Below, one piece after another: positions 2,192-62,973 of a DNA stretch of 64,000 nucleotides. Where the stretch lies: positions 72,788,001 through 72,852,000 of the forward strand of contig NC_090331.1 in assembly GCF_035084215.1 (NCBI RefSeq). Direction: 5' to 3'. The position numbers and the translations under genes are program-made. Under the pieces are notes generated by a model, which made no database searches, was not told where the DNA came from, and was given only the letters and a program-made list of their open reading frames with translations. Origin of the DNA: Heptranchias perlo. Its lineage: Eukaryota. How positions within the stretch are numbered: position 1 is the first letter of the stretch; every line of letters starts with the position of its first letter.

Positions 2192-3747
2192 CTATAATAT
2201 AAATAACAATTAACATATTAACATATCATCATGCCAACATGACTGCAGCATATTTAGGAAAACAGATTGCTATAAGGCGGCAGAAGGTTATAACAAAACC
2301 AAGCAATAGATGAAGTTATTAACCATTAAAGCAAATCATAAACAGTCTATTAAAATATTTGGAACCTTTTGATCGGGTTACGCCATTGTAACTCCCTTAC
2401 TGCTTACCCAATGAAACATTTATTGTGACTACCTTGGAAGCTGATTTTAGGCTGACTGAAGATGCTGGATTTTCATAATGACAATAACTGGGAGATACTT
2501 CACCCAAGATTTCAGCGAATTCTCTCAGTAAAGTAACGCTGGTACCAGGTTTTAGATCGTCCTTTTCTCTTTATAATTAAAGGAGCATACCACTAGCACT
2601 TAACAAAGAGGATAACTTGGGGGTAGCCACAGTTTTTGTATTTGTGGGCCGCTTAGATAAATCCTCGTGGGCCAGATATAAGGTTTAAATCATTGTTCCT
2701 GTTAATTTAATTTATATCTCAAGCCACTGATACTAACAGATCATGAAGTTATGACATGGGATTTATCTACCAGGGAGGGAACAGCAGTAAGAATGATCCA
2801 TTGGATACCTCTAGGCTTGCAAAATTCAAACAGGACTAACCAGACAGTAAGAAATGTAAGATAGTTGTTTGGGCTTTGTGGGCCATGCTACCAGGACACA
2901 CAAGGAGCCCACATGCCCGAGGTGGGACACCCTGATTTAACCAGTATACCCGGGGCAAGGCTTTTGCGCTAACACATCATTTCCCCCCATACCAATGAGA
3001 GGAATAAATAAATCAGAACAATTACATTTCAATACTTCCTGTGACTGAGTAACAAACCTGCAACCAGATACTACAATATTAACCATAATTTCAAGAACTT
3101 GTCTTACTATGATTGGTCAGAGTATTATAACATTCTCTATTCTTACACCGTTGATGTAACAGTGTGGTGCAGCAATGATTTAATGCTAGCTTTTAAATTA
3201 AAATGTTAATTCATCTTCAGAGACAGGAATTGACAATAGTCTGTTAGGTAAAAGATTACCCATTGAAAAAATGAGGGAATTAGAATAAACCTGTATTAAA
3301 AAGGCAGCTGGTAACAAAAATCTATTAACGGCCCAACAATATAAATCACACAAGAAAATCATTTACATCATTATCATGACCATAAAACCAAAACTTACAT
3401 ATGGGTAGGTGCGACATGACCTGATATTGTCATCGAATCCCATCCAGCGCTGGTAGTCAGGATATTCTCCCTTGCTCAGAACATACTGGTATCCCATGTA
3501 ATTGGGTTTCTCATACAGCACCCACCAGTCACTGTCAACACGGATGGAGTTACAGCGGCTGAAGAAAGAGTGCAGGTCAGCACAGTCTGTACTGCACTCA
3601 TGGTGCCGACCCTGGAAGTTCCTGTCCTCGTAAAAGATGATCTGAGAAAAAAAAACATAAATTAACCAATAGTTTAAACAGTTTAGAGTTATTATAAAAT
3701 AGTTAATATAATACGCAAAATACAATGGGCAGGCCAACCTTTCCCAT
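1916..3747 (-). CDS. Gamma-crystallin gene 1 (shark gamma-S-1-like); exons 3739-3747, 3399-3641, 1916-2191; 175 aa; alternative first exon at 4201-4209
   Basis: ATG GGA AAG|gt, ag|[20 protein letters not shown]...RTYPY|gtaagt, ag|[27 protein letters not shown]...GSFRRMRDF*. Exons are 9/243/276 nt and in frame; AATAAA at 1861-1866. The upstream region is rearranged (see findings). Confidence 0.85.
3399..3641 (-). CDS. Gene 1 exon 2 (N-terminal Greek-key domain)
   Basis: Open 243-nt exon with canonical AG and GT boundaries. Confidence 0.93.
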
Positions 3748-16450: not shown

Positions 16451-17716
16451 TTTTTTATTGATTCATTCATGGGATGTGGGCGTCGCTGGCGAGGCCGGCA
16501 TTTATTGCCCATCCCTAATTGCCCTTGAGAAGGTGGTGGTGAGCCGCCTTCTTGAACCACTGCAGTCCGTGTGGTGAAGGTTCTCCCACAGTGCTGTTAG
16601 GAAGGGAGTTCCAGGATTTTGACCCAGCAACAATGAAGGAACGGTGATATATTTCCAAGTCGGGATGGTGTGTGACTTGGAGGGAATGGGCAGGCTCTTA
16701 TCCTTCTAGGTGGTAGAGGTCGCAGGTTTGGGAGGTGCTGTCGCAGAAGCCTTGGCGAGTTGCTGCAGTGCATCCTGAGGATGGTACACACTGCAGCCAC
16801 GATGCACTGGTGGTGAAGGAAATGAATGCTTAGGGTGGTGGATGGGGTGCCAATCAAGTGGGCTGTTTTGTCCTAGATGGTGTCGAGCTTCTTGAGTGTT
16901 GTTGGAGCTGCATTCATCCAAGCAAGTGGAGAGTATTCCATCACACTGCTGACTTGTGCCTTGTAGATGGTGGAAAGGCTTTGGGGAGTCAGGAGGTGAG
17001 TCACTCGCCACAGAATACCCAGCCTCTGACCTGCTCTTGTAGCCACAGTATTTATGTGGCTGGTCCAGTCTAGTTTCTGGTCAATGGTGACCCCCAGGTT
17101 GTTGATTGTGGGGGATTCGGTGATGGTAATGCCGTTGATTGTCAAGGGGAGGTGGTTAGACTCTCTCTTGTTGGAGATGGTCATTGCCTGGCACTTGTCT
17201 GGCGTGAACGTTACTTGCCACTTATCAGCCCAAACCTGGATATTGTCTAGGTCTTCCTTTGTGCTAGGTATAACTCCAACCACTGGAGAGTTTTCCCCCT
17301 GATTCCCATTGACTTCAATTTTACTAGGGCTCCTTAATGGCACACTCAGTCAAATGCTGCCTTGATGCTAAGGGCAGTCACTCTCACCTCACCTCTGAAA
17401 TTTAGCTCTTTAGTCCATATTAGCTCCAAGGCTTCAATGAAGTTTGGAGCCAAGTGGTCCTGGCAGAACCCAAACTGAGCATCGGTGAACAGGTTATTGG
17501 TGAGTAAGTGCCGCTTGATAGCACTATCGACGACACCGTCCATCATTTTGCTGATGATGGAAAGTAGACTGATGGGGCAGTAATTGACCGGATTGGATTT
17601 GTCCTGCTTTTTGTGGACAGGACATACCTGGGAAATTTTCCACATTGTCGGGTAGATGCCAATGTTGTAGCTGTAATGGAACAGCTAAGCTAGAGGCGCG
17701 GCTAGTTTTGGTGCAG
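16451..17716 (-). mobile_element. Jockey-group (CR1/L2-related) LINE, 5'-truncated and internally deleted
   Basis: RT motifs in the ORF track (WKISQVCPVHKK; PISLLSIISK); same 3' UTR and A-tail as 36421-39530; ~220 bp missing at ~17255. Confidence 0.9.
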
Positions 17717-21765: not shown

Positions 21766-23009
21766 CTAGAAATCCCTCATTTGCCTGAAAGATCCGATAG
21801 TTGAGCTGTTGCCGCCCAGTCACTGAATCTCCTGTATTCACCGGGACTCATGAAGTACTGCCTTCCCATGTAGTTGGGATGTTCATAGAAGGTCCAGTAA
21901 CCGTCCATCACATTGCAGGAGTGAATGTCACGGTAGCGGAAACGATCGTTGACAGATGGACAGTCATCCATGAATTCCATCATCTGTCCTCCAAAGTCAG
22001 GCCTCTCGTAAATCTTCATTCTGTAGGAACCCCCACTGGTCTGTAATATAAGTAAAATAATATTTATTAACTGTGAATCCAAAGCATAATTTGATAATGT
22101 TTTTAGGAATCCTTTGTTAAATTACATCCTGTAACCCCCTCACAACTAATCCAATGCTTATTTTTCAAGCAATGCCAACTTGTAGATCTGACTTTAAGCT
22201 TTGGGAGTAGAGTTTTATCCTGTGGGTAACTGGAGAGGGATCTAACCCAGCAGGTTTGTGATTTTTTTTTAACTCTATACGATTGTTATAGCAGAGCCAC
22301 TGCCAAGGTTCAAATTTTCACCTTATCTCCACCACTATTGAAGGAGCAATCACCGATGTTCAGTGATGGAGGTTAATCAGCCTAACAGGGCTATTATCCT
22401 ACCATTCTATTTTCCCTTATCTGTGGTGGTGCTATTAACAGCAGAGATAAATAACCCTTTACAATTTATAGTCCAACAATGTTGTGACTGAAGTACCAAT
22501 TTCCAATAAAGTGTGATCTGCCACTGAAGTAACAACCTCGATATCAAAGTTCCTTTTGTTCTAGTTCTTGTTATCCTTTAACTATTCAGTGCCTTACATC
22601 ATTTATTTTACTCACACTTTGATGTTACAGTACAGTACAGAAGTTACAGATTCTAAACTATCTGTTAGACTTTACTTTGGGGGGGGAAAGGTGCCAATAA
22701 TAAAAGTGTCATCTCCTTAAATAAGATAGAACAAGAATAAAATTATTACTTAAAAGAGAGAAGGGTACATTATCCATTGAGAGGCAGTAAATAATATAAA
22801 GCATTATCAGCAAATAATTTGCTGAATTAGCAGCTTGTGTATGGGTATGTGCGACATGACCCGATGCTGTCATTGAATCCCATCCAGCGCTGGTAGTCAG
22901 GATATTCTCCTCTCCTCAGAACATACTGATATCCCATGTAATTGGGTCTCTCATACAGCACCCACCAGTCACTCTCAACACGGATGGAGTTACAGCGGCT
23001 GAAGTAAGA
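21766..23009 (-). pseudogene. Gamma-crystallin pseudogene (gene 3), 5'-truncated; exon 2 remnant 22839-23009, exon 3 21766-22040
   Basis: Exon 3 is 275 nt (1-bp loss near 21815 gives [16 protein letters not shown]); exon 2 donor is ACAAGC; homology stops at 23009. Confidence 0.9.
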
Positions 23010-32120: not shown

Positions 32121-35100
32121 CTATAAAATTAACAAAATCATTAAATCGATGTAAAAATGTAATTTAAAATACTAACAGAATGATACGCTTTTATTTGCAA
32201 ATCTGATGAATGTTAAATTCCTTTCCTGGAATGCTTTACAATAAAAATCCACAATCGCATCATAAAATAATGTTATCTCTTGAAAATGCTACAAATATAA
32301 TAATAACAACAACAACCTGCATTTATATAGCGCCTTTAACGTAGTAAAATGTCCTAAGGTGCTTCATAAGAGCAATTTTCAAACAAAATTTGACACCAAG
32401 CCACATAAAGAGATATTAAGACAGGTGATCAAAAGCTTGGTCAAAGAGGTAGGCTTTAAGGACCATCTTAAAGGAAGAGAGAGTGGTAGAGAGGTGCAGA
32501 GCAGTAGGGAGGGAATTCCAGAGCTATGGGGCTAGGCAGCTGAAGGTACGGCTGCCAAGAGGCAAGAATTGGAGGAACACGGAGATCTCGGAGGGTTGTA
32601 GGGCTGGAGGAGGTTTCAGAGATAGGGAGGGGTGAGGCCCTGGAGGGATTTGAAAACAAGGATGAGAATTTTAAAATTGAGGCATTCCCGTACCGGGAGC
32701 CAATGTCGGTCAGCGAGCACAGGGGTGATGCGTGAACAGGACTTGGTGCGAGTTAGGATACGGGCAGCAGAGTTTTGGGTGAGCTCAAGTTTATGGAGGG
32801 TGGAAGATGGGAGGCCGGCCAGGAGAGCATTGGAATATAATAAACAGATAAAATCCATGGTATACAGAAGTTCTGGAAATGGAATTTTCCTGTATTTATT
32901 AATATGCTCTTTTGTTCTATTTAGATGTAATTCTATATAGTTCCACTTCTTTCTAACAAAACAAAATATGTGACAATCTCTCACTGAAATCTATTTTGAT
33001 TACATATCTATTTTAGTTATAGAGAATATATGCAGTAGTTGATCTGAAGTCTGAATAGTTCTGTAAGTCATGTTATAAATTCTTTACTGCATCCCAAGAA
33101 TGCTCTGGGAATCTAAGCTATTTCTGATTTGCTTCTGTTTCAAATATCCCAACCATCGTCAGCTGCTTCATCAATGACCTTCCCTCCATCATAAGATCAG
33201 AAATGGGGATGTTCGCTGATGATTGCACAGTGTTCAGTTCCATTCACAATCCCTCAGATAATGAAGCAGTCCGTGCCCACATGCAGCAAGACCTGGGCAA
33301 CATCCAGGATTGGGCTCATAAGTGGCAAGTAACATTCGCACCAGACAAGTGCCAGGCAATGACCATCTCCAACAAGAGAGAGTCTAACCACCTCCCCTTG
33401 ACATTCAACGGCATTACCATCGCCGAATCCCTCACCATCAACATCCTGCGGGTCACCATTGACCAGAAACTTAACTGGACCAGCCACATAAATGCTGTGA
33501 CTACAAGAGCAGGTCAGAAGCTGGGTACTCTGCAGCAAGTGTCTCACCTCCTGTCTCCCCAAAGCCTTTCCACCATCTGCAAGGCACAGTCAGGAGTGTG
33601 ATGGAATACTCTCCATTTGCCTGGATGAGTGCAGCTCCAACAACACTCAAGAAGCTCGACACAATCCAGGATAAAGCAGCCCGCTTGATTGGCACCCCAT
33701 CCACCACCCTAAACATTCACTCCCTTCACCATCGGCGCACCGTAGCTGCAGTGTGTACCATCCACAGGATGCACTGCAGCAACTCGCCAAGGCTTCTTCG
33801 ACAGCACCTCCCAAACCCACGACCTCTACCACCTAGAAGGACAAGGGCAGCAGGCACATGGGAACAACGCCATCTGCATGTTCCCCTCCAAGTCACACAC
33901 CATCTCGACTTGGAAATATATCGCCATTCCTTCATCGTCGCTGGGTCAAAATCCTAGAACTCCCTTCCTAACAGCACTGTGGGAGAACCTTCACCACATG
34001 GACTGCAGCGGTTCAAGAAGGCGGCTCACCACCACCTTCTCAAGGGCAATTAAGGATGGGCAATAAATGCTGGCCTTGCCAGCGACGCCCACATCCCATG
34101 AACGAATAAAAAAAGTAGAGACGGATAAGAAAGCACAACTAGTCAGTGATTTACTTTTACCTCTCTGTATATACTATTGTACTGTAATCGATGATGGGAA
34201 CAGTCCCTTACATAGTACATACAATGACAATCCTGTACAATGTCGATTAGTGTGACATTCTGGGCAGTTTATTCCATATTAATAAGTTCCTATTGGATGC
34301 AATTTTAATTAGATGCTTTTGCTTCAACCCCAACTTTTGTAAATAATTAAATATCACTATCTTACATGCAAAATAATTTATATTTAACATGTAATAAGTA
34401 ACTGCTTATAGTTCTAACTTAATAGCTTGTCTCTTGACTGCACAGTATGGTGTGATATCTTTCCAGTTTGTTCTTATTAATTAGATATTGTATATTCAAC
34501 TCCATATATGTCCAGATAGAATTAACAATAATCACAATGAAAAGGCAGTATTGTTTGCAGAAAATAGGGAAATGGTCACAAGAAGTTGAAACTTACATAT
34601 GGGTAGGTGCGACATGACCTGATGCTGTCATTGAATCCCATCCAGCGCTGGTAGTCAGGATATTCTCCCCTGCTCAGAACATACTGATATCCCATGTAAT
34701 TGGGTTTCTCATACACCACCCAGCAGTCACTCTCAACACGGATGGAGTTACAGCGGCTGAAGTAAGAGTGCAGGTCAGCACAGTCAGTACTGCACTCGTA
34801 GTGCCGACCCTGGAAGTTCCTGTCCTCGTAAAAGATGATCTATAGTGTCACAGAAGAAAGAAAAAAGGTTGAATTTGTTTTTCTACCAAATAGCGCAGAT
34901 GCTTAAGCAACGGAATTCTTTCTTCCCAACAAAGATGCATGTTTGAGTCACAAGGCTGTCTAATAGTTGCCATGATGTGGAGATGCCGGTGATGGACTGG
35001 GGTGGATAAATGTACAGAGTCGTACAACACCAGGTTATAGTCCAACAGCATTATTTGAAATCACAAGCTTTCAAATAAAGCTGTTTGACTCACCCGACGA

Positions 35101-35488
35101 AGGAGCAAAGCTCCGAAAGCTTGTGATTTCAAATAAATCTGTTGGACTATAACCTGGTGTTGTACGACTCCGTACATTTGTCCAATAGTTGGGCAGAGGA
35201 GTAATTTCAACTCACACATGGTCATCTGGATGAAACATGACCAGTTCCACCTGGCGGGTGGGGGAAGGGGAACTGTCAGTCTCACCATGCTCATATTATT
35301 GTTGACCAACTCTGCAATGGTATCGACCATGGCTGTGGACTCTGCTATTCACCCAAACTGTCCCATTCTCCCAGCTGGAGTAGACTGTGTTATGGAGAAT
35401 GTAAACTAAACATGTTGAGAGAATATGAATCCTAAAAAATTACATATTTAATCAAAAATGTAAAAACTTTTTTTTTTACCTTGCCCAT
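31845..35488 (-). CDS. Gamma-crystallin gene 4, intact; exons 35480-35488, 34597-34839, 31845-32120; 175 aa
   Basis: ATG GGC AAG|gt; all splice sites GT-AG; exons 9/243/276 nt and open; TATA 35542-35547; AATAAA 31787-31792. Confidence 0.93.
32298..32836 (-). mobile_element. L2 LINE 3' fragment in gene 4 intron 2
   Basis: [28 protein letters not shown]...HWLPV; (AAC)n tail. Confidence 0.9.
33148..34114 (+). mobile_element. Jockey-group LINE 3' fragment in gene 4 intron 2
   Basis: [11 protein letters not shown] motif, 3' UTR and A-tail; near-identical to the reverse complement of 36421-37390. Confidence 0.92.
34597..34839 (-). CDS. Gene 4 exon 2
   Basis: Translated by hand: [81 protein letters not shown]; absent from the ORF track. 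Confidence 0.93.
34970..35178 (+). mobile_element. Penelope-like terminal-repeat mini-insertion (inverted + forward copy) with 13-bp TSD
   Basis: TSD TGTCTAATAGTTG (34957-34969) / TGTCCAATAGTTG (35179-35191); empty site in the paralogous intron at 53657-53669; internal ~65-bp inverted repeat. Confidence 0.85.
35090..35126 (+). ncRNA. Minimal type I hammerhead ribozyme motif with a mutated core
   Basis: TCAC-CCGACGA-A-GGAGC-AAA-GCTCC-GAAA-GCT-T-GTGA; core reads CCGACGA instead of CUGANGA. Confidence 0.6.
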
Positions 35489-35499
35489 GTTGATTTTCC

Positions 35500-35625
35500 T
35501 GCTGAAGTCCTCGGTGAATTGTAGTCAGAAGGCTGCCCTTTTTTATACTTTCCATGGTCTGTTCAGTCTACAAAGAACATTGACATTTAAATTAACTTTT
35601 ATTCAAGTCAGCAAAATGCTGCTGG
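35500..35625 (-). promoter_or_regulatory. Gene 4 promoter: TATA 35542-35547, AT-rich half-MARE TTTTGCTGAC 35607-35616
   Basis: Motifs read directly; spacing similar to the other paralogs. Confidence 0.65.
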
Positions 35626-36160
35626 TGTGGTATGTTCCATTTAGAAAAAAAACCTGACTCAAGAGGAGAGTTTTTGTTCTCATTGCTTCCAGCGTTTATT
35701 TTACTGAATAGCAGTCTTCACAAATAGAAGCACTAGTGAAAGACTAGTAATCCCTGTATAAAGGCAAGCAAAATAGGCCTACAAATCAGCTAACGTTACA
35801 AAGGTGGAGAATGTGTGGAAAATTCTACTGTGTAAAACACATACAGTAATTGCTTTTTCTCCTTGCAGGAATATCATGGAAAATTAGCTTTTTTTGGTGG
35901 GCTAATTACATTGATAAGAGTGCAAACATGGAAATAACCAAACTGATTGCCTGAGCCCCTAAGATCTGAACCCTAAGGGAATCAGCAGCCTGGATGCATT
36001 CTGCAAAATAACGGCAGCACAGACTCCAAAGAAAATAAAAACATAAAACAGTCTCTTCGAAAAATGAATAATTTGAAATTACTTGCAATCTGTGTCACTC
36101 TTGCTGATAACATGTCTCCTAATATTGCTCCAGTGTTGTTAACAGCACCAGAAGGCATGA

Positions 36161-36222
36161 TAGAGAGAGAGTGAGAGTGAGAGAGAGCAAGAGAGAAACA
36201 GGTACAGATACAGACAGAGAGA
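36161..36222. repeat. Imperfect (GA)n microsatellite
   Basis: AGAGAGAGAGTGAGAGTGAGAGAGAG... Confidence 0.7.
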
Positions 36223-36420
36223 ATAATGTGAGTGGGTTCCGAACGGACACCTGACACAAGATGAGCTCGACTGATTGAATTGCCACAAAGAAGTATGAAA
36301 TGTTGTGTACATTTGAGGGTCAACTGTCAAGCAATTTGAAAGACAAAAGCACAAAGGCAAGAAAGGGAGGAGTCAAACCTTTATCCAAAATGGAAGTGAA
36401 AACAAAATGTGAATGCCACC

Positions 36421-39400
36421 TTTTTTTTATTCGTTCATGGGATGTGGGCGTCGCTGGCAAGGCCAGCATTTATTGCCCATCCCTAATTGCCCTTGAGAAG
36501 GTGGCGGTGAGCCGCCTTCTTGAACTGCTGCAGTCCGTGTGGTGAAGGTTCTCCCACAGTGCTGTTAAGTAGGGAGTTCCAGGATTTTGACCCAGTGACG
36601 ATGAAGAAACGGCAATATATTTCCAAGTCAGGATGGTGCATGACTTGGAGGGGAACGTGCAGGTGGTGTTGTTCCCATGTGCCTGCTGCCCTTGTCCTTC
36701 TAGGTGGTAGAGGTCGTGGGTTTGGGAGGTGCTGTCGAAGAAGCCTTGGCGAGTTGCTGCAGTGCATCCTGTGGATGGTACACACTGCAGCCACGGTGCG
36801 CCAGTGGTGAAGGGAGTGAATGTTTAGGGTGGTGGATGGGGTGCCAATCAAGCGGGCTGTTTTGTCCTGGATTGTGTCGAGCTTCTTGAGTGTTGTTGGA
36901 GCTGCACTCATCCAGGCAAATGGAGAGTATTCCATCACACTCCTGACTGTGCCTTGCAGATGGTGGAAAGGCTTTGGGGAGTCAGGAGGTGAGTCACTCA
37001 CCGCAGAATACCCAGCCTCTGACCTGCTCTTGTAGCCACAGTATTTATGTGGCTGGTCCAGTTAAGTTTCTGGTCAATGGTGACCCTCAGGATGTTGATG
37101 GTGGGGGATTCGGTGATGGTAATGCCGTTGAATGTCAAGGGGAGGTGGTTAGACTCTCTCTTGTTGGAGATGGTCATTGCCTGGCACTTGCCTGGTGCAA
37201 ATGTTACTTGCCACTTATCAGCCCAATCCTGGATGTTGTCCAGGTCTTGCTGCATGCGGGCATGGAATGCATCATTATCTGAGGGGTTGTGAATGGAACT
37301 GAACACTGTGCAATCATCAGCGAACATCCCCATTTCTGACCTTATGATGGAGGGAAGGTCATTGATGAAGCAGCTGAAGATGGTTGGGCCTAGGACACTG
37401 CCCTGAGGAACTCCTGCAGCAATGTCCTGGGGCTGAGATGATTGGCCTCCAACAACCACTACCATCTTCCTTTGTGCTAGGTATGACTCCAGCCACTGGA
37501 GAGTTTTCCCCCTGATTCCCATTGACTTCAATTTTACTAGGGCTCCTTGGTGCCACACTCAGTCAAATGCTGCCTTAATGTTAAGGGTCGTCACTCTTAC
37601 CTCACCTCTGGAATTCAGCTCTTTTGTCCATGGTCGGACCAAGGCTGTAATGAGGTCTGGAGCCGAGTGGTCCTGGCGGAACCCAAGCTGAGCATCGGTG
37701 AGCAGGTTATTGGTGAGTAAGTGCCACTTGATAGCACTGTCGATAACACCTTCCATCACTTTGCTGATGATTGAGAGTAGACTGATGGGGCGATAATTGG
37801 CCGGATTGGATTTGTCCTGCTTTTTGTGGACAGGACATACCTGGGCAATTTTCCACATTGTCGGGTGGATGCCAGTGTTGTAGCTGTACTGGAACAGCTT
37901 GGCTAGAGGCGCAGCTAGTTCTGGCGCACAAGACTTCAGCACTACAGCCAGGATGTTGTCAGGGCCCAAAGCCTTTGCTGTATCCAGTGCACTCAGCCGT
38001 TTCTTGATATCACGTGGAGTGAATCAAATTGGCTGGAGACTGGCTTCTGTGATGGTGGGGATATTGGGAGGAGGCCGAGATGGATCATCCACTCGGCACT
38101 TGTGGCTGAAGATGGTTGCAAATGCTTCAGACTTGTCTTTTGGACTCACGTGCTGGACTCCGCCATCAATGAGGATGGGGATGTTTGCAGAGCCTCCTCC
38201 TCCCGTTAGTTGTTTAATTGTCCACCACCATTCACGACTGGCTGTGGCAGGACTGCAGAGCTTTGATCTGATCCGTTGGTTGTGGAATCGCTTCGCTCTG
38301 TCTATAGCATTTTGCTTCCGTTGTTTAGCATGCATGTAGTCCTGAGTTGTAGCTTCACCAGGTTGGCACCTCATTTTTAGGTACGCCTGGTGCTGTTCCT
38401 GGCATGCTCTTCTACACTCCTCATTGAACCAGGGTTGATCCCCTGGCTTGTTGGTAATGGTAGAGTGAGGAATATGCCAGGCCATGAGGTTACAGATTGT
38501 GCTGGAATACAATTCTGCTGCTGCTGATGGCCCACAGTGCCTCATGGATGCCCAGTTTTGAGCTGCTAGATCTGTTCTGAATCTATTCCATTTAGCACGG
38601 TGGTAGTGCCACACAACACGTTGGATGGTGTCCTCAGTGCGAAGACGGAACTTCGTCTCCACAAGGATTGTGCGGTGGTCACTCCTACCAATACTGTCAT
38701 AGACAGATGCATTTGCGACAGGTAGATTGGTGAGGACAATGTCAAGTAAGTTTTTCCCTCGTGTTGGTTCGCTCACTACCTGCCGCAGGCCCAGTCTGGC
38801 AGCTATGTCCTTCAGGACTCGACCAACTCGGTCAGTAGTGGTGCTACCGAGCCACTCTTGGTGATGGACATTGAAGTCCCCCACCCAGAGTACATTTTGT
38901 GCCCTTGCTACCCTCAGTGCTTCCTCCAAGTGGTGTTCAACATGGAGGAGGACTGATTCATCAGCTGAGGGAGAACGGTAGGTGGTAATCAGCAGGAGGT
39001 TTCTTTGCCCATGTTTGACCTGATGCCATGAGATTTCATGGGGTCCAGAGTCAATGTTGAGAACTCCCAGGGCCACTCCCTCCTGACTGTATATCACTGT
39101 ACCGCCACCTCTGGTGGGTCTGCCCTGCCGGTGGGACAGGACATACCCAGGGATGGTGATGGAGGAGTCTGGGATGTTGGCTGAAAGGTATGATTCTGTG
39201 AGTATGGCTATGTCAGGCTTTTGCTTGACTAGTCTGTTGGACAGCTCTCTCAATTTGCACAAGTCCCCAGATGTTAGTGAGGAGGACTTTGCAGGGCTTG
39301 GTTTGCCGTTGTCGTGTCCGGTGCCTAGTGGTCCGATGCTGGGTGGTCCGTCCGGTTTTATTCTTATTATGACTTTTCGTAGCGAGATTTTACAACTGAG

Positions 39401-39530
39401 TGGCTTGCTAGGCCATTTCAGAGGGCAATTAAGAATCAACCACATTGCTGTGGGTCTGGAGTCACATATAGGCCAGACCGGGTAAGGATGGCAGGTTTCT
39501 TTCCCTAAAGGACGTTAGTGAACCAGATGT
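36421..39530 (-). mobile_element. Near-complete ORF2 of a Jockey-group (CR1/L2-related) LINE, with stops and frameshifts
   Basis: AP endonuclease (PDIAILTESYL, VGDFNVHH, LLDIVLTN, GRSDH) and RT (GVPQGSVLGP, MFADD) across ORFs 38024-39445, 37559-37969, 36998-37558, 36483-37001; poly(A) at 36421. Confidence 0.95.
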
Positions 39531-42500
39531 TGAAGTATAGCAACTGTTTTGGAGGAAATCGCCTGAGAACTAGCAAACGGTGGGCATTGCATTGTGAACA
39601 ATTGGAATCACATCAGAGGATAAGTAACTAGGGTCCTTCTCCTGTCCTGGGAAAGCTCTACCATCAAAATAATGATGGTTAATAAAACAGGAGTAAAAAT
39701 GTTATCATGACTTTTGTTTCAGTATAACCTGTGAAAAAATGATAAGGCATAGATGCTATTCGCTCTGAAATTTCTTGGTGAACAGCCCCACCTTTGACTC
39801 TGCCTTCTCCACGGCTGTTCATCCAGCCCTTTGAAGCTTGGGACTTGGGTCTGGGAATGCGACTGATTGTAATTTTAAACTACTTGCTGCATGAATATGA
39901 ACAGGTTATTGAAATCATATTTTAACATTGTCAGCCAAAGAATCGCAGGTAACATTGACAAGGATAAACCTGGTTGCAATATCTTTAGCCACGTCAATCA
40001 AAGTTAGATTGACACCTCTGCCTTAAAATAAGCTGAGGTGCATGAATATTACCGTCAGTTGCATTATAAGATTATATTTGCTGCCAGCAGAGCATGTGAC
40101 TGATTAAATAACTCATTTCCATTTGCTTAAATTGTGCTACAACCATTTACTGCACTCTAAACAAGAATGGTGAGCGAAAGAGTTGCAGCAAATATGAAAA
40201 CAAAACTATTTGAAGGATTCCTGCCCAGAAAGTGAGAAAGAAACCTTCCTTAGTTATGAGGAGTGATTCGCTCATTGAAGAAGATTGAAGGGAACATGAT
40301 CCAAGTCTTTACTGCCAAGAGCACAAATTATGTGGATATAAGGAGGCAATTTAATTTGGATTGAATAAACATAAAGAATATGGGATTAAAATGATAAAAA
40401 CCTCAATTGTGACTGGAGATTAGAATTATTTTTCATCTGGAAATGTGGAACAGACTCTCAGCAAAAAAAAACAGTTAATGCTCATCAAATAACTCCTTTA
40501 AAAGAGATGGATAAATATCTGGTTGAAGATTTTTTGGAAAAGTGTAGACTGAGATGATCAGATATTCTACATGATGGTTCCTGTGCTACTGAGGTCGAGT
40601 GGGAGGGGGAGTTGTTTACAGAGGCCAGCAGGCTAGAGTTGAATAGTGGAGGTGTGGGAAAAGATATATATTCTGGAGTTTTGATTGTTTGCTTTTGGCG
40701 ATGAGGGATTATTTGTGCTGCAAGTTTAATATGTGGAATACAGTCACAATAGGATACATTTTATTTGGTTCAGTTGTACTGGGTTTGATGAATCAAGTGG
40801 CCTGAAGAGTTTCTGCTTTGTGTATCCAAACTGAGAAAGAAATTACCAAAATATTTCCAGTTTTAATATTTAATCCCACGATACCCAATATTTATCAGTG
40901 CATAGATGTGTGCCGGCACATTGCTTAAATATATCTAGCCCTCGATGTTAAAACTTTAAAAATCTCTCTTCTTTAGCTGTGGCAACCTTATTTCACCTCA
41001 TCAGAATTCATATGATCAGAGAGAAAATCTGTCAAAAGCTTGTAAGCAACACATTCCAACAAATCCAGTCAGGATCATTCAGTGTCAAGACAACCAACAT
41101 TGCGTTTTGACTGTTGCATCTTTACATAAGATTATAGAAGGTTGAATAGCACACGCAAATATTTAAGCTGAAAATTATAAAAATGGGTAAACATAGACCA
41201 ATGAATTCCAGCAGGAAAGACTGATGAAAAGGCTGAAATATCACCACAATCCAGGCATAACCTGTTCATCATCAAGCTGACACTTGCTTTACCCTCCTAC
41301 TCCCCCTAGTGACTTTATATCTAAAAGCCAAGACATCTTTTGCAAACAGTACACAATTCACCACTTTATCCACACATCTATCTTTTTTGCTAAAATTAGC
41401 AAACAGAGGAAAATATAGCCACTTGAGTCTGAAAAACAAACCCATGTTCATGTGCAGACAAACCACAAAAAGGTAAGTAATTCTAACTCAGTTATCCTGC
41501 AATTTGTAAGTATTGTCCCATTTTGTGGAATTAGGAACTAGCTTGTTTTTAAACCAACATATTTTTATAATATTTATTATATGTTCCCCAATTTTCATAA
41601 TATGTTACTTCTTCAAATGTCTGCCTGATCCAACTGGGAGTAGGAAGAACATGGAGGGTGGAAATACTGGTGGAGTGTGCTACACAGATAGAAGGCCTTA
41701 ATGAATCAGTTCGATAGAAAGATATGGACTTCACAATGCGTCGCCCAATTGAAGACAGGACAGCAAGTGTAGACGTGTTCATGCCAGATTTCTATAAACT
41801 GAACTTGGCAAGTGGGGATGGTGAAGTAAAGGAGGCAGCAGTAGCCCTGGTAAACGGTGCCTGAGACCACCAATTTGCCTTAGAGCCACACTTCAGAGGC
41901 TGGTGACTAGGATTCTGTTTGAGGCATGCATATCTCAGTATTCCAAAGTACAATTATGACTTCTATCCACAAGAAGGTTGAGGGTGGGGGGGGTGTCGTA
42001 GTGAGCTAGAAATCTACAGAAGAATTTTGGCTGAAATCAGTGGCTCTTCAATTGGTTATTTGGGTTATTGCGCCATGTATATCAAATGCTCTGGGGGTCT
42101 GCAGAAAGGATTTAGCTCTTGTAAGGAATGTATAGGTCAGGTTTTGCTGTTATTTGAGATTAGAGTGTTGTACGCCTCAGAGGAAACTCCACTTACAATA
42201 TTTCATTGGCTTTCGAATGGCCTTTGACTTAGTGCCTCATGCCGCCCTCATGAGAAAGCTGGAAGCTGTGGAAATACATCATCAAAATTGTCGCAAAGTT
42301 GTGAATGAGTCATGGTTAACCTCCCAAATTAATACAGAAATCATTTCATAGCTGACCACAATGCCTATTTTTAAGAAATATCACATTCAATATAGAGTAG
42401 GATATAATTTTGTTAAGTACATTATTGATTTTAATAGGATTAATTTTGTGGGCAAAGAATTCTCCATTTCTCCACACGATGCCATCTTAGATGTTTTTTA

Positions 42501-42564
42501 CTGCAGCCCACAACTGCTTGGTCACCATTTCTAAGTGCTCCCAGCAGCAATTGAAGTTTTCCAC

Positions 42565-42605
42565 ATTCACCTGAGGAAGGAGGAAGCCTCCGAAAGCTTG
42601 TGAAT
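42565..42605 (+). ncRNA. Minimal type I hammerhead ribozyme
   Basis: ATTCAC-CTGAGGA-A-GGAGG-AAG-CCTCC-GAAA-GCT-T-GTGAAT: paired stems I and II, CUGANGA and GAAA cores, palindromic AGCU stem III. Confidence 0.75.
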
Positions 42606-42657
42606 TTCAAATAAAATTGCTGGACTATAACTTGGTGTTGTAAAATTGTTTACAATT
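42565..42657 (+). mobile_element. Penelope-like terminal-repeat mini-insertion (forward part only)
   Basis: Almost identical to 48451-48540; imperfect flanking repeat CAATTGAAGTT / CAATTAAAATT. Confidence 0.75.
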
Positions 42658-43299
42658 AAAATTAAAGGCAGCCATGCATCCTGAAATGTTATATTTCGAG
42701 CATTCATCGCAGAGATGATTTAAATTTCGAGCTTTGAGTGTTTGCAGGGGACTTCTAAAAAAAATTTGCTCAGAGGCATTCTCCTTTCATTGTCTTCTCC
42801 TGCCTGGCCTACTCTTTGACTCAACAACATGGCTGAAATCAGGAACTTACTGTATGCAGAACTCTGGGATGTTTCAAAAAGACAGTTTAACAAAAATTTG
42901 GAACAATCTGATGTGTGACCGGCCTCTGAATGATGTGTAATCATCTGTACATGTTATGATGTGATTTTATTGTAAAATTTGATTGATGTCAGTATGCAGC
43001 TGCTAATATCAATGATTTCTCATAGACTAGATTGTTGTTGCAACTGGATCAGTTTTTGCAACTAGATCAGAAGTAGATTGTCTAATACAGCACCAGCACC
43101 ACTAATTAAATAAATTAGTGCCATTTGGGTGGGTCAAGATTCAATGAAACTGTAGAATAAGGTCTAAATACAGCACTTAAAGCACAGCTAGAAATATTGA
43201 GAAATATTTGCATTACTTTCTAAAGAAGAATGGAAGACTCATAACTAAAGTGATCAAAACCGTGTTTATTTCTGAATTAACATGGAGGTTTTAAAATAT

Positions 43300-43575
43300 T
43301 TAGAAATCCATTACACGGCGGAAAGATCCGATAGTTGGACAAGTTGCGCCCCAGTCACTGAATCTCCTGTATTCACCAGGTCTCATGAAGTACTGTTGGC
43401 CTCTGTAGTTGGGTTGTTCATAGAAGGTCCAGTAACCGTCCGTCACATGGCAGGAGTGAATGTCACGGTAGCGGAAACGATCGTAGACAGATGGACAGTC
43501 ATCCGTGAATTCCATCATCTGTCCTCCAAAGTCAGGCCTCTCGTAAATCTTCATTCTGTAGGATCCATCGCTAGG
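43300..43575 (-). CDS. Gene 5 exon 3
   Basis: [27 protein letters not shown]...GSFRRVMDF*. Confidence 0.93.
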
Positions 43576-44835
43576 CTATAAAATTTAGAAAATCATTAAA
43601 CTCTTACTACTATAAGTAAATACATCTATATGTAAATATGAGAAATGTAAAACCCATAAAAACAATAATTCTGTGAATGGAGATTCCCTGTATTTATTAA
43701 CATGCTTTTTTGTTATGTTTATATACAATTCTATCTGGTCCCACTTATATCTAAATGAAATATTTATAATAAAATGATAACCACTCACTGAAATCTACAC
43801 CGACATAAATATCCACTTTACTTGTGAATAACATGTTGTATTTGAAGTGAAATCTGAATAGTTCTGTAAGTGATGTTATAGGTTCCTAATTGCTTCCCAG
43901 GAATGAATTATGAATCTTTGCAATTTTTGTTGCTTCTTCTATTCCAAATAAAGATACATAAGAAGCCACAGCTAGATCAGTGTTACAGTACTGTATGTGT
44001 ATCTCTGCACATATAGTACTGTAACATTATTATACTGTAATACAACATGGAAGCACTCCCTTACAGTTTATATACTTATAATCACTACCTATATCAAAAT
44101 ACCTCATTTCACTTGCCTATTTCAGTGTAGTTAATACAGTGCTGTACAGGGCTTCCCATTACTGTATATGACATACAGTTCCAGTTATTTTTCTATTGCA
44201 CCATAAGATTCTGTTGTTTTAATTTACATCTAAATTAGATTATCTATAAATATAGTAAAATAACATGGAAGCTGTAACTAAAGATATCACAGGCTGTAGA
44301 TTGTTTAGACAATTGAGTTATTAGTTTGGCCAGTGACTTCAGGTCTAAATTCAATTCCTTCAGTGTTTTGTAACTATCCATCACTTTGCTGGACTCTACA
44401 TCCTGATATAAATCAGTCATTATCAAATTATTATACTAAAGATGAAATTCACAAAATAGAGAAAGATTTGCAAATCATTAAAGAAGTTATAGCTTACATA
44501 TGAGTATGTGCGACATGACCTGATGCTGTCATTGAATCCCATCCAACGTTGGTAGTCAGGATATTCACCCTTGGTCAGAACATACTGGTATCCCATGTAA
44601 TTGGGTTTCTCATACATCACCCAGCAGTCACTCTCAACACGGATGGAGTTGCAGCGACTGAAGTAAGAGTGCAGGTCAGCACAGTCAGTACTGCACTCAT
44701 GGTGCCGACCCTGGAAGTTCCTGTCCTCGTAAAAAGTGACCTGTGGAAAATAGATACATGTTAGCTGGAACTGCACACATTCAGAGATGTTCATTTAAAA
44801 AAAAATCCAACATGAATTTGTTTTACCTTTCCCAT
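43300..44835 (-). CDS. Gamma-crystallin gene 5, intact; exons 44827-44835, 44498-44740, 43300-43575; 175 aa
   Basis: ATG GGA AAG|gt; GT-AG introns; exons 9/243/276 nt and open; TATA 44906-44911; AATAAA 43265-43270. Confidence 0.94.
44498..44740 (-). CDS. Gene 5 exon 2
   Basis: [20 protein letters not shown]...RSCRTYSY|gtaagc. Confidence 0.93.
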
Positions 44836-46074
44836 TTTGTCTGATTGGAGTGGATCCGAAAATGTCTCTTCGGTAGACTTCACTCACAGCAGAGTAACGG
44901 CTTCTTTTATACAACTCAATTAATAAGGTCCCAGTGACGCTCCATTGTTATTATAAAATCTTTCCTTTATGTGACCAGTGCAGTATACTTTCAAAACAAG
45001 AAAAAAAATCCTGATTCATCACCAGTATCACAAATTTTTGTTGCTTTGTGTTTTATCATTTCTGTCAAAAGAAGCTTTTTGTTTTGGCCTACGTACAACA
45101 GCACATTAATCTCTTGAACAAAAGGAATTCTGAATCAACAGTGTGTAACAACTGGGATTAGCAGTGTCTGGTCTGAATGAAAGCATTCAATCATACTGTA
45201 ATTTGTTTTAAAGGGGCAGTGGCCTTATGAAATAAATGCTTGGCAAACCATTTTCTCATTTGTTTTCAAAACACATCATACCGTGTAATGTAATGGGACA
45301 ACAAGGAAATTAAAATAATGGATCCTTCTTAATCCTCAACTCACCTCACCTCCCCAACCCCACCCTCCAAAAAAAAGGTGCCAGAGCCACCTTTATGAAG
45401 ACGAAACCGCTGCAAATTACTTTTATTGCAGAGTTAGAGTTACTCAATTCTATAACATTTCTTGAAGAGATACAAGATATATTCTATAAAATTGTCCAAC
45501 TATGTTCAGTATCTCTTCATTATTTGTTACAATTATTGTATTTAATTATGTTTGAATGACTTAAGACACATTTAAGTTGATGTCCTGGAAACCAGTGCTC
45601 AAATGGAGACCCTCAGTCTCCATGCACTTCTCTCCCTTATTTGCCTTTATTCCTGCCAAAGCTCCAAGTCAAGGCTTGTTGGTGGCTGGACACCCACAAT
45701 TGATCACTGTAAGGCACTGGCTTTGTGCATTTAGAGTTAAGTGGAAATCTGGTCGCAAAATAAAAATCCGTTTCACAGGACTGTTAACAATACTTGCATA
45801 ATTGGCATAAATTTTGAAAATTGGCTGCTATCATTGAAAATGAGATCATGTTAACTTTTTATTATAACTTTTCCCCATTTGCCACTATACTTTTCCTTGT
45901 AGACGGTCCTGGTTGTCCATTAAGGAAGGTTAATCTGAAGCTGCAGTAGTCTCAGAGCCGCCGGTGGCAATTCTCAGGAGCAGCAGTAACTATTTTGGAG
46001 GATAAGCCAAAACACACCCACTTTTTCCATCCCAGTGAAATGCACATTTTGGGCCTCCACACAGGCTTCCCCAT

Positions 46075-46172
46075 CATAGGAACATAGAAACAGGAGTAGG
46101 ACATTCAGATCCTCGAGCCTGTTCCACCATTCAATTAGATCATGACTGATCTGTATCTTAACTCCATTTGCC
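46075..46172 (-). mobile_element. CR1 3' tail fragment
   Basis: CATAGGAACATAGAAACAGGAGTAGG.CATTCAG...; same tail type as at 51889. Confidence 0.7.
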
Positions 46173-48383
46173 ACCAGGGCGGCTAAGAACAGACACAACA
46201 CAACGGAAGCATCAGAGCCACAATGACGAGAATCTCTGGGACTTAAACTTATTCACTGGTTGGGAGTCAAGCTGTCTCCAATACCAGAGTCCATTAAAGG
46301 GGCAAAAAATGAACTCTCTCAAATTATAACATTATAAACAAACTTCAGCTTCTGTCAGCCCTTTTTATCATCACTCCCAGTGACAGGGAAGCCGATATTT
46401 TTATTCATGTGAGAACTGCTAATCACAAAAACAACTTGCTGACTGAAACCGCCCCACAAAGGACCGTGGCTGGAAAATAAGACCAACAAATGTAAAGACA
46501 AACTAAAGTGACTGGAATATTTTATAAATAATAGCAGGTAGGAGGGAATGATTTTTCAAGATTATAACCTGAGATTGGAGTTTGTATAACATTTATAAAC
46601 CACTCTTTATGAGTTTCGATTTTAGCTATATGACTTGACAATGACAGAGCCTTGTACTCACTCACTGGCATGCAGTGATCTGCACGCAACCAACAGCACC
46701 ACAGTAATGATTAACTGCATTTAGAATTAAGTAAATGTTGCAATACAAGATATCTTTTAAAAGGAGCTGTATGCCACAAGCAAAATCACAAAAAATGATT
46801 TATATCCAAACTATAGCTATTTAAGTCCAGGTGCTGCCAGGACAATTTCTTAAAAAAAAATGTATACTTTTTCTTTTAAAGAGATATTGATTTAATCTCT
46901 CTCTCTCTCACATTGGCAGGACTGGCAATTTTGAATCAGATCTCCAAACAACTAAGTTATTTAATGAAGCATCACTGTAAATGACTATTTACGTTTAAAA
47001 CCAAATCATGATTTATGGAACTGCATAAATAATGCTGGAAAATACTGAGTGTAAATATTACACTATTATCTTTATTTTTAAGAGCCTCAGTTAGGCTGAA
47101 AAATAAAACAGGACTCCTCTGATTAATTCACATTCCTAAATATGCCCCACGGAACTTATTTCTTCCTATCTCGACTCTTTCTTTTCCCCCTGTCCAGTGT
47201 CTTCCAATCAACATCCGCGACTCTTCCGACGCCCTCCGCCACTTTAACAGTTTCCAGATCCCCGCTCCTAAGCGTCTCCTTTTCACCATGGACTTCCAGT
47301 CCCTCTACACCTCCATCCCCCACCAGGACGGCCTGCGGGCCCTTCGCTTCTCCCTTGAACAAAGGCCTAACCAGTCCACATCCACCACCATCCTCCTCCG
47401 CCTGGCTGAACATTGAACAGCTTCTCCTTTGACTCTACTCACTTCCTCCAAATAAAAGGCGACGCTATGGGAACCTACATGGGTCCTACCTATGCCTGCC
47501 TTTTTGTGGGATACGTGGGACATTCTTTGTTCCAGTCCTACTCAGGTCCCCTCCCTCACCTCTTATTCCGGTACATTGATGTCGGTATCGGTGTCGTTTC
47601 CTGCTCTCGCCCCAACCTGGAAAATTTCACCAACTTCCAATTTCCACCCTTTCCTCGCCTTCACATGGTCCATCTCCAACTCTTCCCTTCCTTTCCTCGA
47701 CTTCTCTATCTCCATTTCTGGGGATGAGCTGTCAACCAATATCTACTATAAATCCACTGACTCCCACAGTCACCCTTGATCACACTTCCTCCCACCCCGC
47801 TTCCTGTAAGGACTCTATTCCCATCTCCCAGTTTCTCCGTCTCCATCACATCTGTTCTGATGATGCCACCTTCCACACTCGCGCTTCCGATATGTCTTCC
47901 TTTTTCCTCAAATGAGGATTCTCCTCCACTGTAGTTGACAGGACCCTTGACCGTGCCCATCTCATTTCCCGCACTTCTGCTCTCACCTCTTCCCCTACCT
48001 CCCAAAACCACGATAGGGTCCCCCTTTTCCCTACCTTCCACCCCACCAGCCTCACATTCAATGGATTCAAATCCTCCGCCATTACTGCCACCTTCAGCAC
48101 GATGCCACCACAAAACACGTCTCCCCCTTCCCTCCCCTACAGTATTCCGAAGGGACCATTCCCTCGGCGACACCCTGGTCCACTCTTCCATCACCCCCAA
48201 CACCCGCTCTCCTTCCCACAGCACCTTCCTGTGCGAACGCAAAACCTGCCCTTTCACCTCCTCCCTTCCCACTGTCCAGGGCCCCAAACACTCCTTCCAG
48301 GTGAAAAAGCAATTTACTTGTACTTCTTTCAATTTAGTATACTGTATTCGCTGCTCACAATGTGGTCTCCTCTACATTGTGGA

Positions 48384-48533
48384 CATGATGTGGAGATGCC
48401 GGTGATGGACTGGGGTTGACAATTGTAACGTTGTTGGAAAATCAACAACGTTCACCTGAGGAAGGAGGAAGCCTCCGAAAGCTTGTGAATTTAAAATAAA
48501 ATTGCTGGACTATAACTTGGTGTTGTAAAATTG
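48384..48533 (+). mobile_element. 150-bp hammerhead-bearing mini-insertion with perfect 13-bp TSD, nested in the GIY-YIG motif
   Basis: TCTACATTGTGGA at 48371-48383 and 48534-48546; starts CATGATGTGGAGATGCCGGTGATGGACTGGGGT exactly as at 34971. Confidence 0.88.
48451..48489 (+). ncRNA. Minimal type I hammerhead ribozyme
   Basis: TTCAC-CTGAGGA-A-GGAGG-AAG-CCTCC-GAAA-GCT-T-GTGAA, identical to 42566-42604. Confidence 0.75.
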
Positions 48534-49072
48534 TCTACATTGTGGAGACCAAATGCAGATTGAGTGATCGCTTTGCTAAACACCCCGCTCAGTCCGCAAG
48601 GTGACCCTGACCTTCTGGTTGCTTGCCATTTTAACTCTCCATCCCACTCCCACTCTGACCTCTCTGTCTTCGGCTTCTTACACTGTTCCAATGAAGCTCA
48701 ACAGAAGCTCGAGGAACAGCACCTCTTCTTTCCTTTAGGCACTTCACAACCTTTTGGACTCAACATTTATTTCAATAACTTCAGTTCATAACCACTGCTC
48801 CCATTTTTTCGGACAGCAGGTGATGGTAATGATTCTGCTGTTGCCATTTACAGCTCCTCTACACCCATCTCTTGTTTATTTACTTGTCCCATTACCTCCC
48901 TCCTTGCCTTGCATCATCATCCCTTCTGTCATTTAATCACTCCTGCCCAATCTTATCACAGACCTTCCCTTTTGTTCTTTCCTCCCCTCCCCTTCCTCCT
49001 CCCCCACCCCCCCCCCAACCTTTTCCCTGGCTCTGAACTTGCTTAAAAACTGTTAAATCTTCAACTTCTTCC

Positions 49073-49109
49073 AGTTCTGACGAACGGTCATCAACCTGAA
49101 ACATTAACT
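49073..49109 (+). ncRNA. Decayed minimal hammerhead ribozyme of the host Penelope-like element
   Basis: AGTT-CTGACGA-ACGGTCATCAACCT-GAAA-CAT-T-AACT: stem I AGTT/AACT, both cores intact, stem II weakened. Confidence 0.6.
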
Positions 49110-49412
49110 CTGTTTCTTTCTCCACAGATGCTGCCTGACTTGCTGAGTATTTCCAGCATCTTCTGTTTTTATTTTTATTTCAGATATCCAGCATCTGCAG
49201 TATTTTGCTTTTGATTTCCTAAATATCAATTGTTTTGTATCTATTATATTACATGGTTTCAACATAAAATATCATTTCAGCTCACTGTAATAAAGGATTG
49301 GTGCCCCAGTCCACATTCTTTTAGCCCAAAGAAGGACTGAAATATCTATAGATCTAATAGGTCAAAAGAGATAAATAACCATGAAAGTTACACCCATACA
49401 AGACAACCCATA

Positions 49413-62295: not shown

Positions 62296-62973
62296 CCCCA
62301 TCTTACATATCATCACTACACATCTTCCCATCTTAAAAATCCATTACTACACATCTTCCCATCTTAAAAACCCATCACTACACATCTCCCCATCTTACAT
62401 ATCACGACACACCTCCCCATCTTACATACACAAGACTACACACCTCCCCATCTTACACACCCATTACGACACACCTCCCCATCTTACACACCTCCCCATC
62501 TTACACACCCATTACTACACACCTCCCCATCTTACACACCTCCCCATCTTACACACCCATTACTACACATCTCCCCATCTTACATATCACTACACACCTC
62601 CCCATCTTACACACCCATTACTACACATCTCCCCATCTTACATATCATCTCCACATCATACATATCACTACACACCTCCCCATCTTACACACCCATTACT
62701 ACACACCTCCCTATCTTACATACCATTACTACACACCTCCCCATCTTACATACCATAACTACACACCTCCCCATCTTACATACCATAACTACACACCTCC
62801 CCATCTTACATACCATTACCACATATCTCCCCATCTTACATACCCAGTACTACACACCCATTACCACACACCTTCCTATCCTACATACCCATTACTACAC
62901 ATCTCCTCATCTTACATACCCATTATTACACACCTCCCCATCTTACACACCCATGACCACACACCTCCCCATC
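62296..62973. repeat. Minisatellite, ~31-bp unit CACACCTCCCCATCTTACATACCCATTACTA with 18-30-bp variants
   Basis: More than 20 copies of the CCCCATCTTACA core are visible. Confidence 0.95.

Follow-up and report, generated by a model that had tools for sequence, protein, structure and literature searches.

A short Penelope-like end-module insertion, probably double-primed, in a crystallin gene intron of Heptranchias perlo

An intron of a beta/gamma-crystallin gene in Heptranchias perlo carries a 209-bp insertion, here called insert 1, which is real, cleanly bounded and of a known kind, and is neither a fixed-size unit nor a retrozyme. We consider it probable that insert 1 represents the end module of a Penelope-like element (PLE), a hammerhead and a tail, inserted as a short piece without an ORF, and that it was double-primed on uncleaved RNA. 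All positions are those of the window, by which we mean the whole 64-kb stretch of DNA that was analysed (64,000 nucleotides of NC_090331.1).

Results

Target site and empty site

The window holds a tandem array of crystallin genes, with five copies of exon 2 recognized by translation, one of which matches PF00030 at E 1.9e-32. Insert 1 lies in intron 1 of the host gene, 118 nt from exon 2. A preliminary description of this DNA had proposed a 209-bp insert with a 13-bp TSD and an empty site in a paralogous intron, and alignment with that intron, the sole alignable paralogous one in the window, confirms all three: insert 1 occupies 34970-35178, contains no ORF and is flanked by 13-bp TSDs.

34840..35479, minus strand: intron 1 of the host beta/gamma-crystallin gene; exon 2 begins at 34839 and coding exon 1 is 35488-35480
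34957..34969, plus strand: left TSD of insert 1, TGTCTAATAGTTG, 13 bp, with a single C-to-T change relative to the right copy and the empty site
35179..35191, plus strand: right TSD of insert 1, TGTCCAATAGTTG, 13 bp
53657..53669, plus strand: empty site in the paralogous crystallin intron, where the 13-mer occurs once

The TSD copies are identical at 12/13 positions, and a match of at least 12/13 has a chance probability of ~9e-7. On both sides of insert 1 the flanks align with the paralogous intron at ~86% (121 and 65 nt). Since the TSDs differ at 1/13 positions and the arms of the insert at 4/70, against ~14% for the paralogue flanks, insert 1 is younger than the gene duplication, which agrees with the empty site as the earlier state.

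Structure of insert 1

Insert 1 combines an inverted arm with a forward copy of the same module.

34970..35072, minus strand: inverted arm, 103 nt, made up of the 3' half of the hammerhead, the downstream pLTR and a 38-nt tail
35069..35090, plus strand: snap-back segment in the loop, 22 nt, pairing with 35039-35060 at 91% complementarity around an 8-nt loop and forming a junction palindrome
35088..35184, plus strand: forward pLTR copy without the tail, its final 6 nt being common with the right TSD
35090..35126, plus strand: minimal type I hammerhead, with stem I at 35090-93/35123-26, core at 35094-35100 and stem II at 35102-35114
35132..35163, plus strand: AATAAA (35132) followed by a GT-rich stretch (35157), resembling a poly(A) signal, with putative function

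The fold-back of the two arms had been recognized in the preliminary description, which gave it ~65 bp and missed the 22-nt snap-back segment; the stem measures 70 nt (35003-35072 against 35115-35184, 94% complementary), with a fold z of -14.6 and 0/200 shuffles equally stable. The forward copy does stop short of the terminus, as stated there, the distance being 38 nt (32 nt when the 6 nt in common with the target are assigned to the element) rather than ~35.

The minimal hammerhead was also identified correctly, except that C stands in place of U at core position 35095, which had escaped notice. A U-to-C change at such a hammerhead core position is expected to impair cleavage. A palindromic AGCT replaces helix III, and the cut is predicted after 35122 (numbering from PMC4209133 and general knowledge). 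Two hammerhead copies co-fold through stems I and II and not as a textbook dimer, so dimer cleavage is without computational support. Rfam gave no gathering-level match over the window and no hammerhead up to E=10 over 34900-49300; sub-threshold microRNA matches were rejected, as they reflect the hairpin only.

AATAAA and a GT-rich stretch stand between the hammerhead and the tail in 3/3 forward copies of the window. These forward copies contain no ATG, and the first ATG of the module comes at the tail end, where the inverted arm of insert 1 ends in a Kozak-like context at a presumed ORF start. That arm also has one private ATG, at its altered AATAAA. The tail is 66% A+C and does not fold (z ~ +1.2); its fixed end lies 95 nt from the predicted cut, and 117 nt separate the start of stem II from the tail end.

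Other copies in the window

A minimal-hammerhead descriptor that permits C or T at core position 2 finds three matches in the window (35094, 42571 and 48456), against none in 50 shuffles. There are two occurrences of the tail motif (0.02 expected) and two of the intact core pattern (0.06 expected). The matches beyond insert 1 belong to two further copies.

48371..48546, plus strand: insert 2, with TSDs at 48371-48383 and 48534-48546 (13/13) around an insert at 48384-48533, 150 bp
48384-48428: inverted tail arm of insert 2
48427-48452: junction hairpin of insert 2 (10 bp)
48451-48533: forward copy of insert 2, with an intact core at 48456
42558..42657, plus strand: copy 3, forward only, ~100 bp with an approximate left edge and an intact core at 42571

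The insert at 48384 had been said to repeat the layout of insert 1. The order of its parts, its first 33 nt and its 13-bp TSD are indeed those of insert 1, but it is 150 bp long, has no long hairpin and represents a different subfamily (85.5% identity over 76 nt), the two subfamilies being separated by a compensatory pair change in stem II. Its inverted arm, 45 nt long, covers the tail region only and adjoins the forward copy without overlap; read together, the forward copy, one shared T and the reversed arm give the continuous sequence of copy 3, with no gap or overlap. Insert 2 is located inside a GIY-YIG-like region of a different, decayed retroelement, which has no Pfam match and no PDB match, matches Atlas reverse-transcriptase clusters at 0.94-0.95, and which, to judge from its motifs, may be a Neptune-like PLE.

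Copy 3 is identical to insert 2 at 82/83 positions, and TSD candidates of 9/11 and 7/8 were not accepted for it. Since it has neither an inverted arm nor a clear TSD, not every copy uses the double-primed route. The forward copies of insert 1, insert 2 and copy 3 end 38, 46 and 37 nt before the terminus, and the three module copies in 64 kb measure 209, 150 and ~100 bp; tandem hammerheads are absent from all of them.

Priming junctions

A junction hairpin is present in both insert 1 and insert 2. At the forward-copy junction, insert 1 matches the target at 6/6 positions (TGTCCA, P ~3e-4), and insert 2 at 5/6 with a mismatch of the G:U wobble type (P ~5e-3), its strict overlap being 1 nt. The tail-end junction overlaps the target by 0-1 nt, as judged from the loose-end consensus letters, and microhomology is thus confined to the forward-copy junction; the proposed microhomology priming would apply there, and not at the tail end.

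Junctions in public contigs

Among 24 public runs from 10 studies, four were used: X1 and X19 (organism A, one sample), X5 (organism B) and X7 (organism C). Runs X11-X24 are small shares from which no evidence was drawn, X19, by our guess an RNA run, being the only one of these that was aligned, as contigs. With insert 2 as the reference and a likeness of 82%, 22,109 contigs aligned in X1, 2,510 in X19, 1,647 in X5 and 1,243 in X7. X1 is possibly the window's own sample, so that it is not independent for the sequence of the window itself, while still showing other loci.

The tail end (48384/5) is sharply delimited, the flanks being long and unrelated in 4/4 runs (median loose length 207-255, agreement 0.37-0.41). 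Because unrelated sequence follows in every run, the tail end is a fixed terminus. The view of a Penelope-derived, ORF-less module with a recurring layout is upheld, with the tail as its fixed end. Contigs also continue past the end of the forward copy into tail sequence (loose end behind 48539).

Joints between an inverted arm and a forward copy number at least 14, among the 15 of 30 joints that were listed, and their breakpoint pairs are all different. Arm ends in these 14 lie 23-45 nt from the terminus, as seen with a reference that cannot reveal arms longer than 45 nt, or far-upstream starts, as joints. The forward starts relative to the core are -11, -6, -5, -2, -2, 0, +2, +6, +15, +17, +34, +34, +41 and +45: seven at -11 to +2, three inside the ribozyme, four past the cut and none at the cut (+29). 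With starts over this range and lengths that vary, the suggested fixed-size unit starting at the ribozyme is not supported. The range of 5' truncations that would mark ordinary truncated insertions is present, and so is an apparent upstream limit near the ribozyme.

Among the listed loose ends upstream of the hammerhead, ~5-10 letters are common, and copy 3 shares these letters. Agreement there is mostly 0.42-0.68, with one value of 0.92, against 0.57-0.98 for true continuations among those listed. The pattern suggests that copies may reach an upstream limit ~10-15 nt before the hammerhead, as if by run-off at an RNA 5' end; we word this as a suggestion because the agreement overlaps that of true continuations, the loose ends are partly listed, and copies in organisms B and C may extend further upstream.

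Two back-joints in X1, from 48539 to 48445 (27 letters between, depth 178) and from 48492 to 48445 (depth 50), hint that the module exists somewhere as rare head-to-tail copies. As a rough inference from a summed depth of ~1.2e7 against ~50 per junction, with depth not being itself a copy number, the family may comprise ~1e5 copies or more.

Search for an autonomous partner

The partner query was a reading frame through the pLTR into the terminal ATG. Neither an autonomous partner nor a linked ORF with reverse transcriptase and GIY-YIG was found in these searches, which are weak for a vertebrate repeat, and one candidate (E 9e-4, 41%) was rejected as a repetitive unrelated protein. The Penelope-like assignment therefore rests on the hammerhead, the tail and the layout, and not on a linked ORF. 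Element motifs gave 0 and 0 matches in viral contigs, 0 and 0 in metagenomes and 0 in a second genome scan. Four tail-motif matches in prokaryotes, only 19-25 nt long and with no other part of the element, were rejected as chance.

Discussion

A proposed double-primed route on uncleaved RNA

We propose that an enzyme of the element would cut both DNA strands with a 13-bp stagger. The top-strand end would then prime at the fixed tail terminus, with no homology needed, and produce the inverted arm, while the bottom-strand end would prime 37-46 nt upstream, where ~6 nt of RNA match the target, and produce the forward copy; the bottom-strand primer would pair with RNA just downstream of the end of the forward copy. 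The two copies would be joined through a short snap-back. The pieces of insert 2 abut exactly, as they might after twin priming on one RNA. For insert 1 the overlap of 70 nt, which would give the long hairpin, calls for two templates, perhaps two RNAs, or for the re-reading of one. Each window insert retains bases to the left and right of the cut site and was therefore copied from an uncleaved template; the ribozyme would be a passenger that sets neither end.

Comparison with known systems

The published systems are cited here from excerpts of the papers named. Rotifer Penelopes combine an inverted pLTR, a 31-bp tail, an 8-10-bp TSD and junction palindromes (PMC3846280), and an inverted pLTR with a tail and a TSD is a general PLE pattern (PMC8557442, PMC8969392). 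The report that defines the minimal hammerhead describes opposite-strand pairs 100-700 bp apart and takes dispersed singles to be truncated PLEs (PMC4209133). Our inserts resemble insertions of EN+ PLEs in having an inverted 5'-truncated copy and a direct copy, a tail of 30-40 nt at one end only, a short TSD, a junction palindrome and a minimal hammerhead in the pLTR. The one-end tail measures 38, 46 and 37 nt here, the value of 46 falling slightly above that range, and the inverted arm and the 13-bp TSD are each found in 2/3 copies of the window. The differences are the length of only 150-209 bp, in which there is neither ORF nor body, the TSD of 13 bp against 8-10 bp in rotifers, and a linked autonomous copy, which was not found here. 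Insert 1 thus has four of the five features of a truncated PLE insertion, the fifth being a linked coding element. As an element type it contributes little that is new, since the layout has already been published for Penelope-like elements.

A parallel for the mechanism comes from the Poseidon enzyme, which, according to excerpts of PMC11167929, cuts and extends both strands, acts mainly on uncleaved RNA, uses two internal starts that bound the tail, and initiates without homology at a position 111-118 nt beyond the beginning of stem II. The Anolis Poseidon PAc described there shares with our module the two starts bounding an AC-rich tail, the extension of both strands, the uncleaved RNA and the distance from stem II to the tail (111-118 nt vs 117 nt here). 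The differences are that the ORF of PAc opens at stem II, but the first ATG of our module is at the tail end; that the PAc tail is a stem-loop, but ours is unfolded; and that PAc initiates in the absence of homology, but the forward junctions here match over ~6 nt. Homology at both forward junctions (n=2) is an observation that counts against the proposed route, given the homology-free initiation reported in PMC11167929.

L1 twin and dual priming likewise yields two inverted pieces inside a TSD, a second primer having annealed at an internal position (PMC2837659), and insert 2 fits the twin-priming form and insert 1 the dual-priming form. Unlike L1, the inserts here lack a poly(A) tail, have an internal start site that is fixed, and belong to another enzyme family.

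Possible sources of the RNA

On an unlikely reading that we still find worth setting out, the inserts are aborted strong-stop products. The RNA would start ~10-15 nt before the hammerhead and be polyadenylated at the AATAAA just after the hammerhead, so that in the mature mRNA the tail start sites would be confined to the 5' leader. Reverse transcription begun at these sites would run off the RNA 5' end after ~140 nt, and a jump to the matching 3' hammerhead region would rebuild a full element with a pseudo-LTR, failure of the jump leaving mini-inserts. A hammerhead near the RNA 5' end has a precedent in Drosophila virilis Penelope, judging by its start site at 371 and its intron at 416-491 (PMC2377424); the end of that intron is helix I (PMC4209133), and a 34-bp repeat lies at the ORF start. 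Together with this precedent, the positions of the ATG and the AATAAA allow such a reading. No paper on this Penelope-like family or on a strong-stop model was found in the literature covered, which excluded Repbase/Dfam and subscription journals.

If true, the strong-stop reading would mean that Penelope-like elements couple target priming with an LTR-like strand transfer, and would account for both the regeneration of pseudo-LTRs and the excess of ORF-less copies. The value of the present case lies in its data, as the empty site and two clean TSD-bounded inserts resolve both priming junctions to the base. With so abundant a family, tabulating junctions across the genome could address questions about Penelope transposition, among them whether one or two RNAs serve the two strands, whether microhomology chooses the second priming position, and by what route pseudo-LTRs are restored.

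The same short copies could instead come from a dedicated non-autonomous family, in which ORF-less masters would yield a ~140-nt RNA that is mobilized, in a SINE-like manner, by a Penelope-like protein in trans; double-primed integration would still be possible, the difference being the source of the RNA. This we hold to be quite unlikely. It draws on the abundance of the module, with 22,109 contigs in X1 and three copies in 64 kb, on the lack of any common long continuation up- or downstream among the listed loose ends, and on the clustering of 7/14 listed forward starts at -11 to +2 of the core. Transcription of short copies is conceivable, given the internal promoter of D. virilis Penelope (PMC2377424), and non-autonomous PLEs exist in Chlamydomonas (PMC8557442). 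However, the end of the tail coincides with the first ATG, which has a Kozak-like context, as expected for the leader of a coding element; the dispersed short hammerhead copies of other animals are read as truncated PLEs in excerpts of PMC4209133; and a discrete small RNA is not among the evidence, X19 being RNA only by guess. A fixed SINE- or MITE-like unit is further opposed by the lengths of 209, 150 and ~100 bp and by the distinctness of each listed joint.

Other origins of the layout

The hairpin of insert 1 might alternatively be what is left of a long inverted-pLTR insertion after internal deletion, or a MITE-like DNA element, and its 70-bp inverted repeat would suit either; long PLE copies with inverted pLTRs and microhomology-mediated deletions are known (PMC3846280). 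We regard this as very improbable. The arms are asymmetric, just one of them carrying the tail; insert 2 lacks a terminal inverted repeat, and its pieces abut exactly; the snap-back segments at both junctions favour synthesis over simple loss; and every listed contig junction is different.

The preliminary description had likened the insert to a very small retrozyme, in which tandem hammerheads would release a monomer RNA that is circularized and reinserted. Retrozymes consist of tandem units with one hammerhead each (PMC7229834; 10.64898/2026.07.22.740005), and those of the animal non-LTR type resemble our inserts in being short and non-coding, with a type I hammerhead and a relation to pLTRs, from which a preprint derives animal retrozymes (10.64898/2026.07.22.740005). 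That origin is highly implausible here, since the window copies hold no tandem hammerheads, both inserts span the cut in an inverted layout with ends off the cut site, 0/14 listed forward starts fall at the cut, the motif is of the minimal PLE type and not the canonical retrozyme type (PMC7229834, in excerpt), and the fixed end is the tail, 95 nt away; the two X1 back-joints, which hint at head-to-tail copies, would suit a retrozyme, but partial tandems are normal for PLEs too.

Copies of the hammerhead module

Contigs from a public sequencing run (run X1), aligned on the related 150-bp insertion (insert 2), contain back-joints from 48539 to 48445 and from 48492 to 48445. These joints suggest that the hammerhead module, the element end with the minimal hammerhead, also occurs, though rarely, in head-to-tail arrangement with units of about 122 nt and 48 nt, which, if true, would be similar to retrozyme arrays.

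Insert 2 is itself nested in another retroelement, with an exact 11-bp duplication (47133-47143 and 49216-49226) and with RT-like and GIY-YIG-like motifs, by which it may be a Penelope-like element.

47133-49226, host retroelement, decayed, 5'-truncated, of a family other than insert 2's
~49073-49107, degenerate hammerhead-like motif of this host itself

Genomic surroundings

The crystallin genes form a tandem array (3391-53860).

near 3391, 13245, 34595, 44491 and 53296, crystallin exon-2 copies
near 22832, 28718 and 56555, partial crystallin pieces

On the host pre-mRNA strand, the region of the 209-bp fold-back insertion (insert 1; 34957-35191 with its duplications) is computed to form an extended, almost perfect hairpin (-126 kcal/mol). 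The insertion lies 118 nt away from the crystallin intron's 3' splice site, and the hairpin could possibly act as an editing substrate or influence splicing. Near 53860, the empty-site paralogue shows what looks like an exon 1 with an odd length; this gene copy is possibly a pseudogene.

Two further repeats are present, the dispersed one presumably LINE-like.

16452-17715, 33148-34114, 36421-37928 and 49417-49757, dispersed repeat, copies 86-95% identical
62296-62973, AC-rich minisatellite, period ~31

Near 62626, one minisatellite sub-unit is similar to the final 14 nt of the tail, the fixed-end segment of the insertions, probably by chance.
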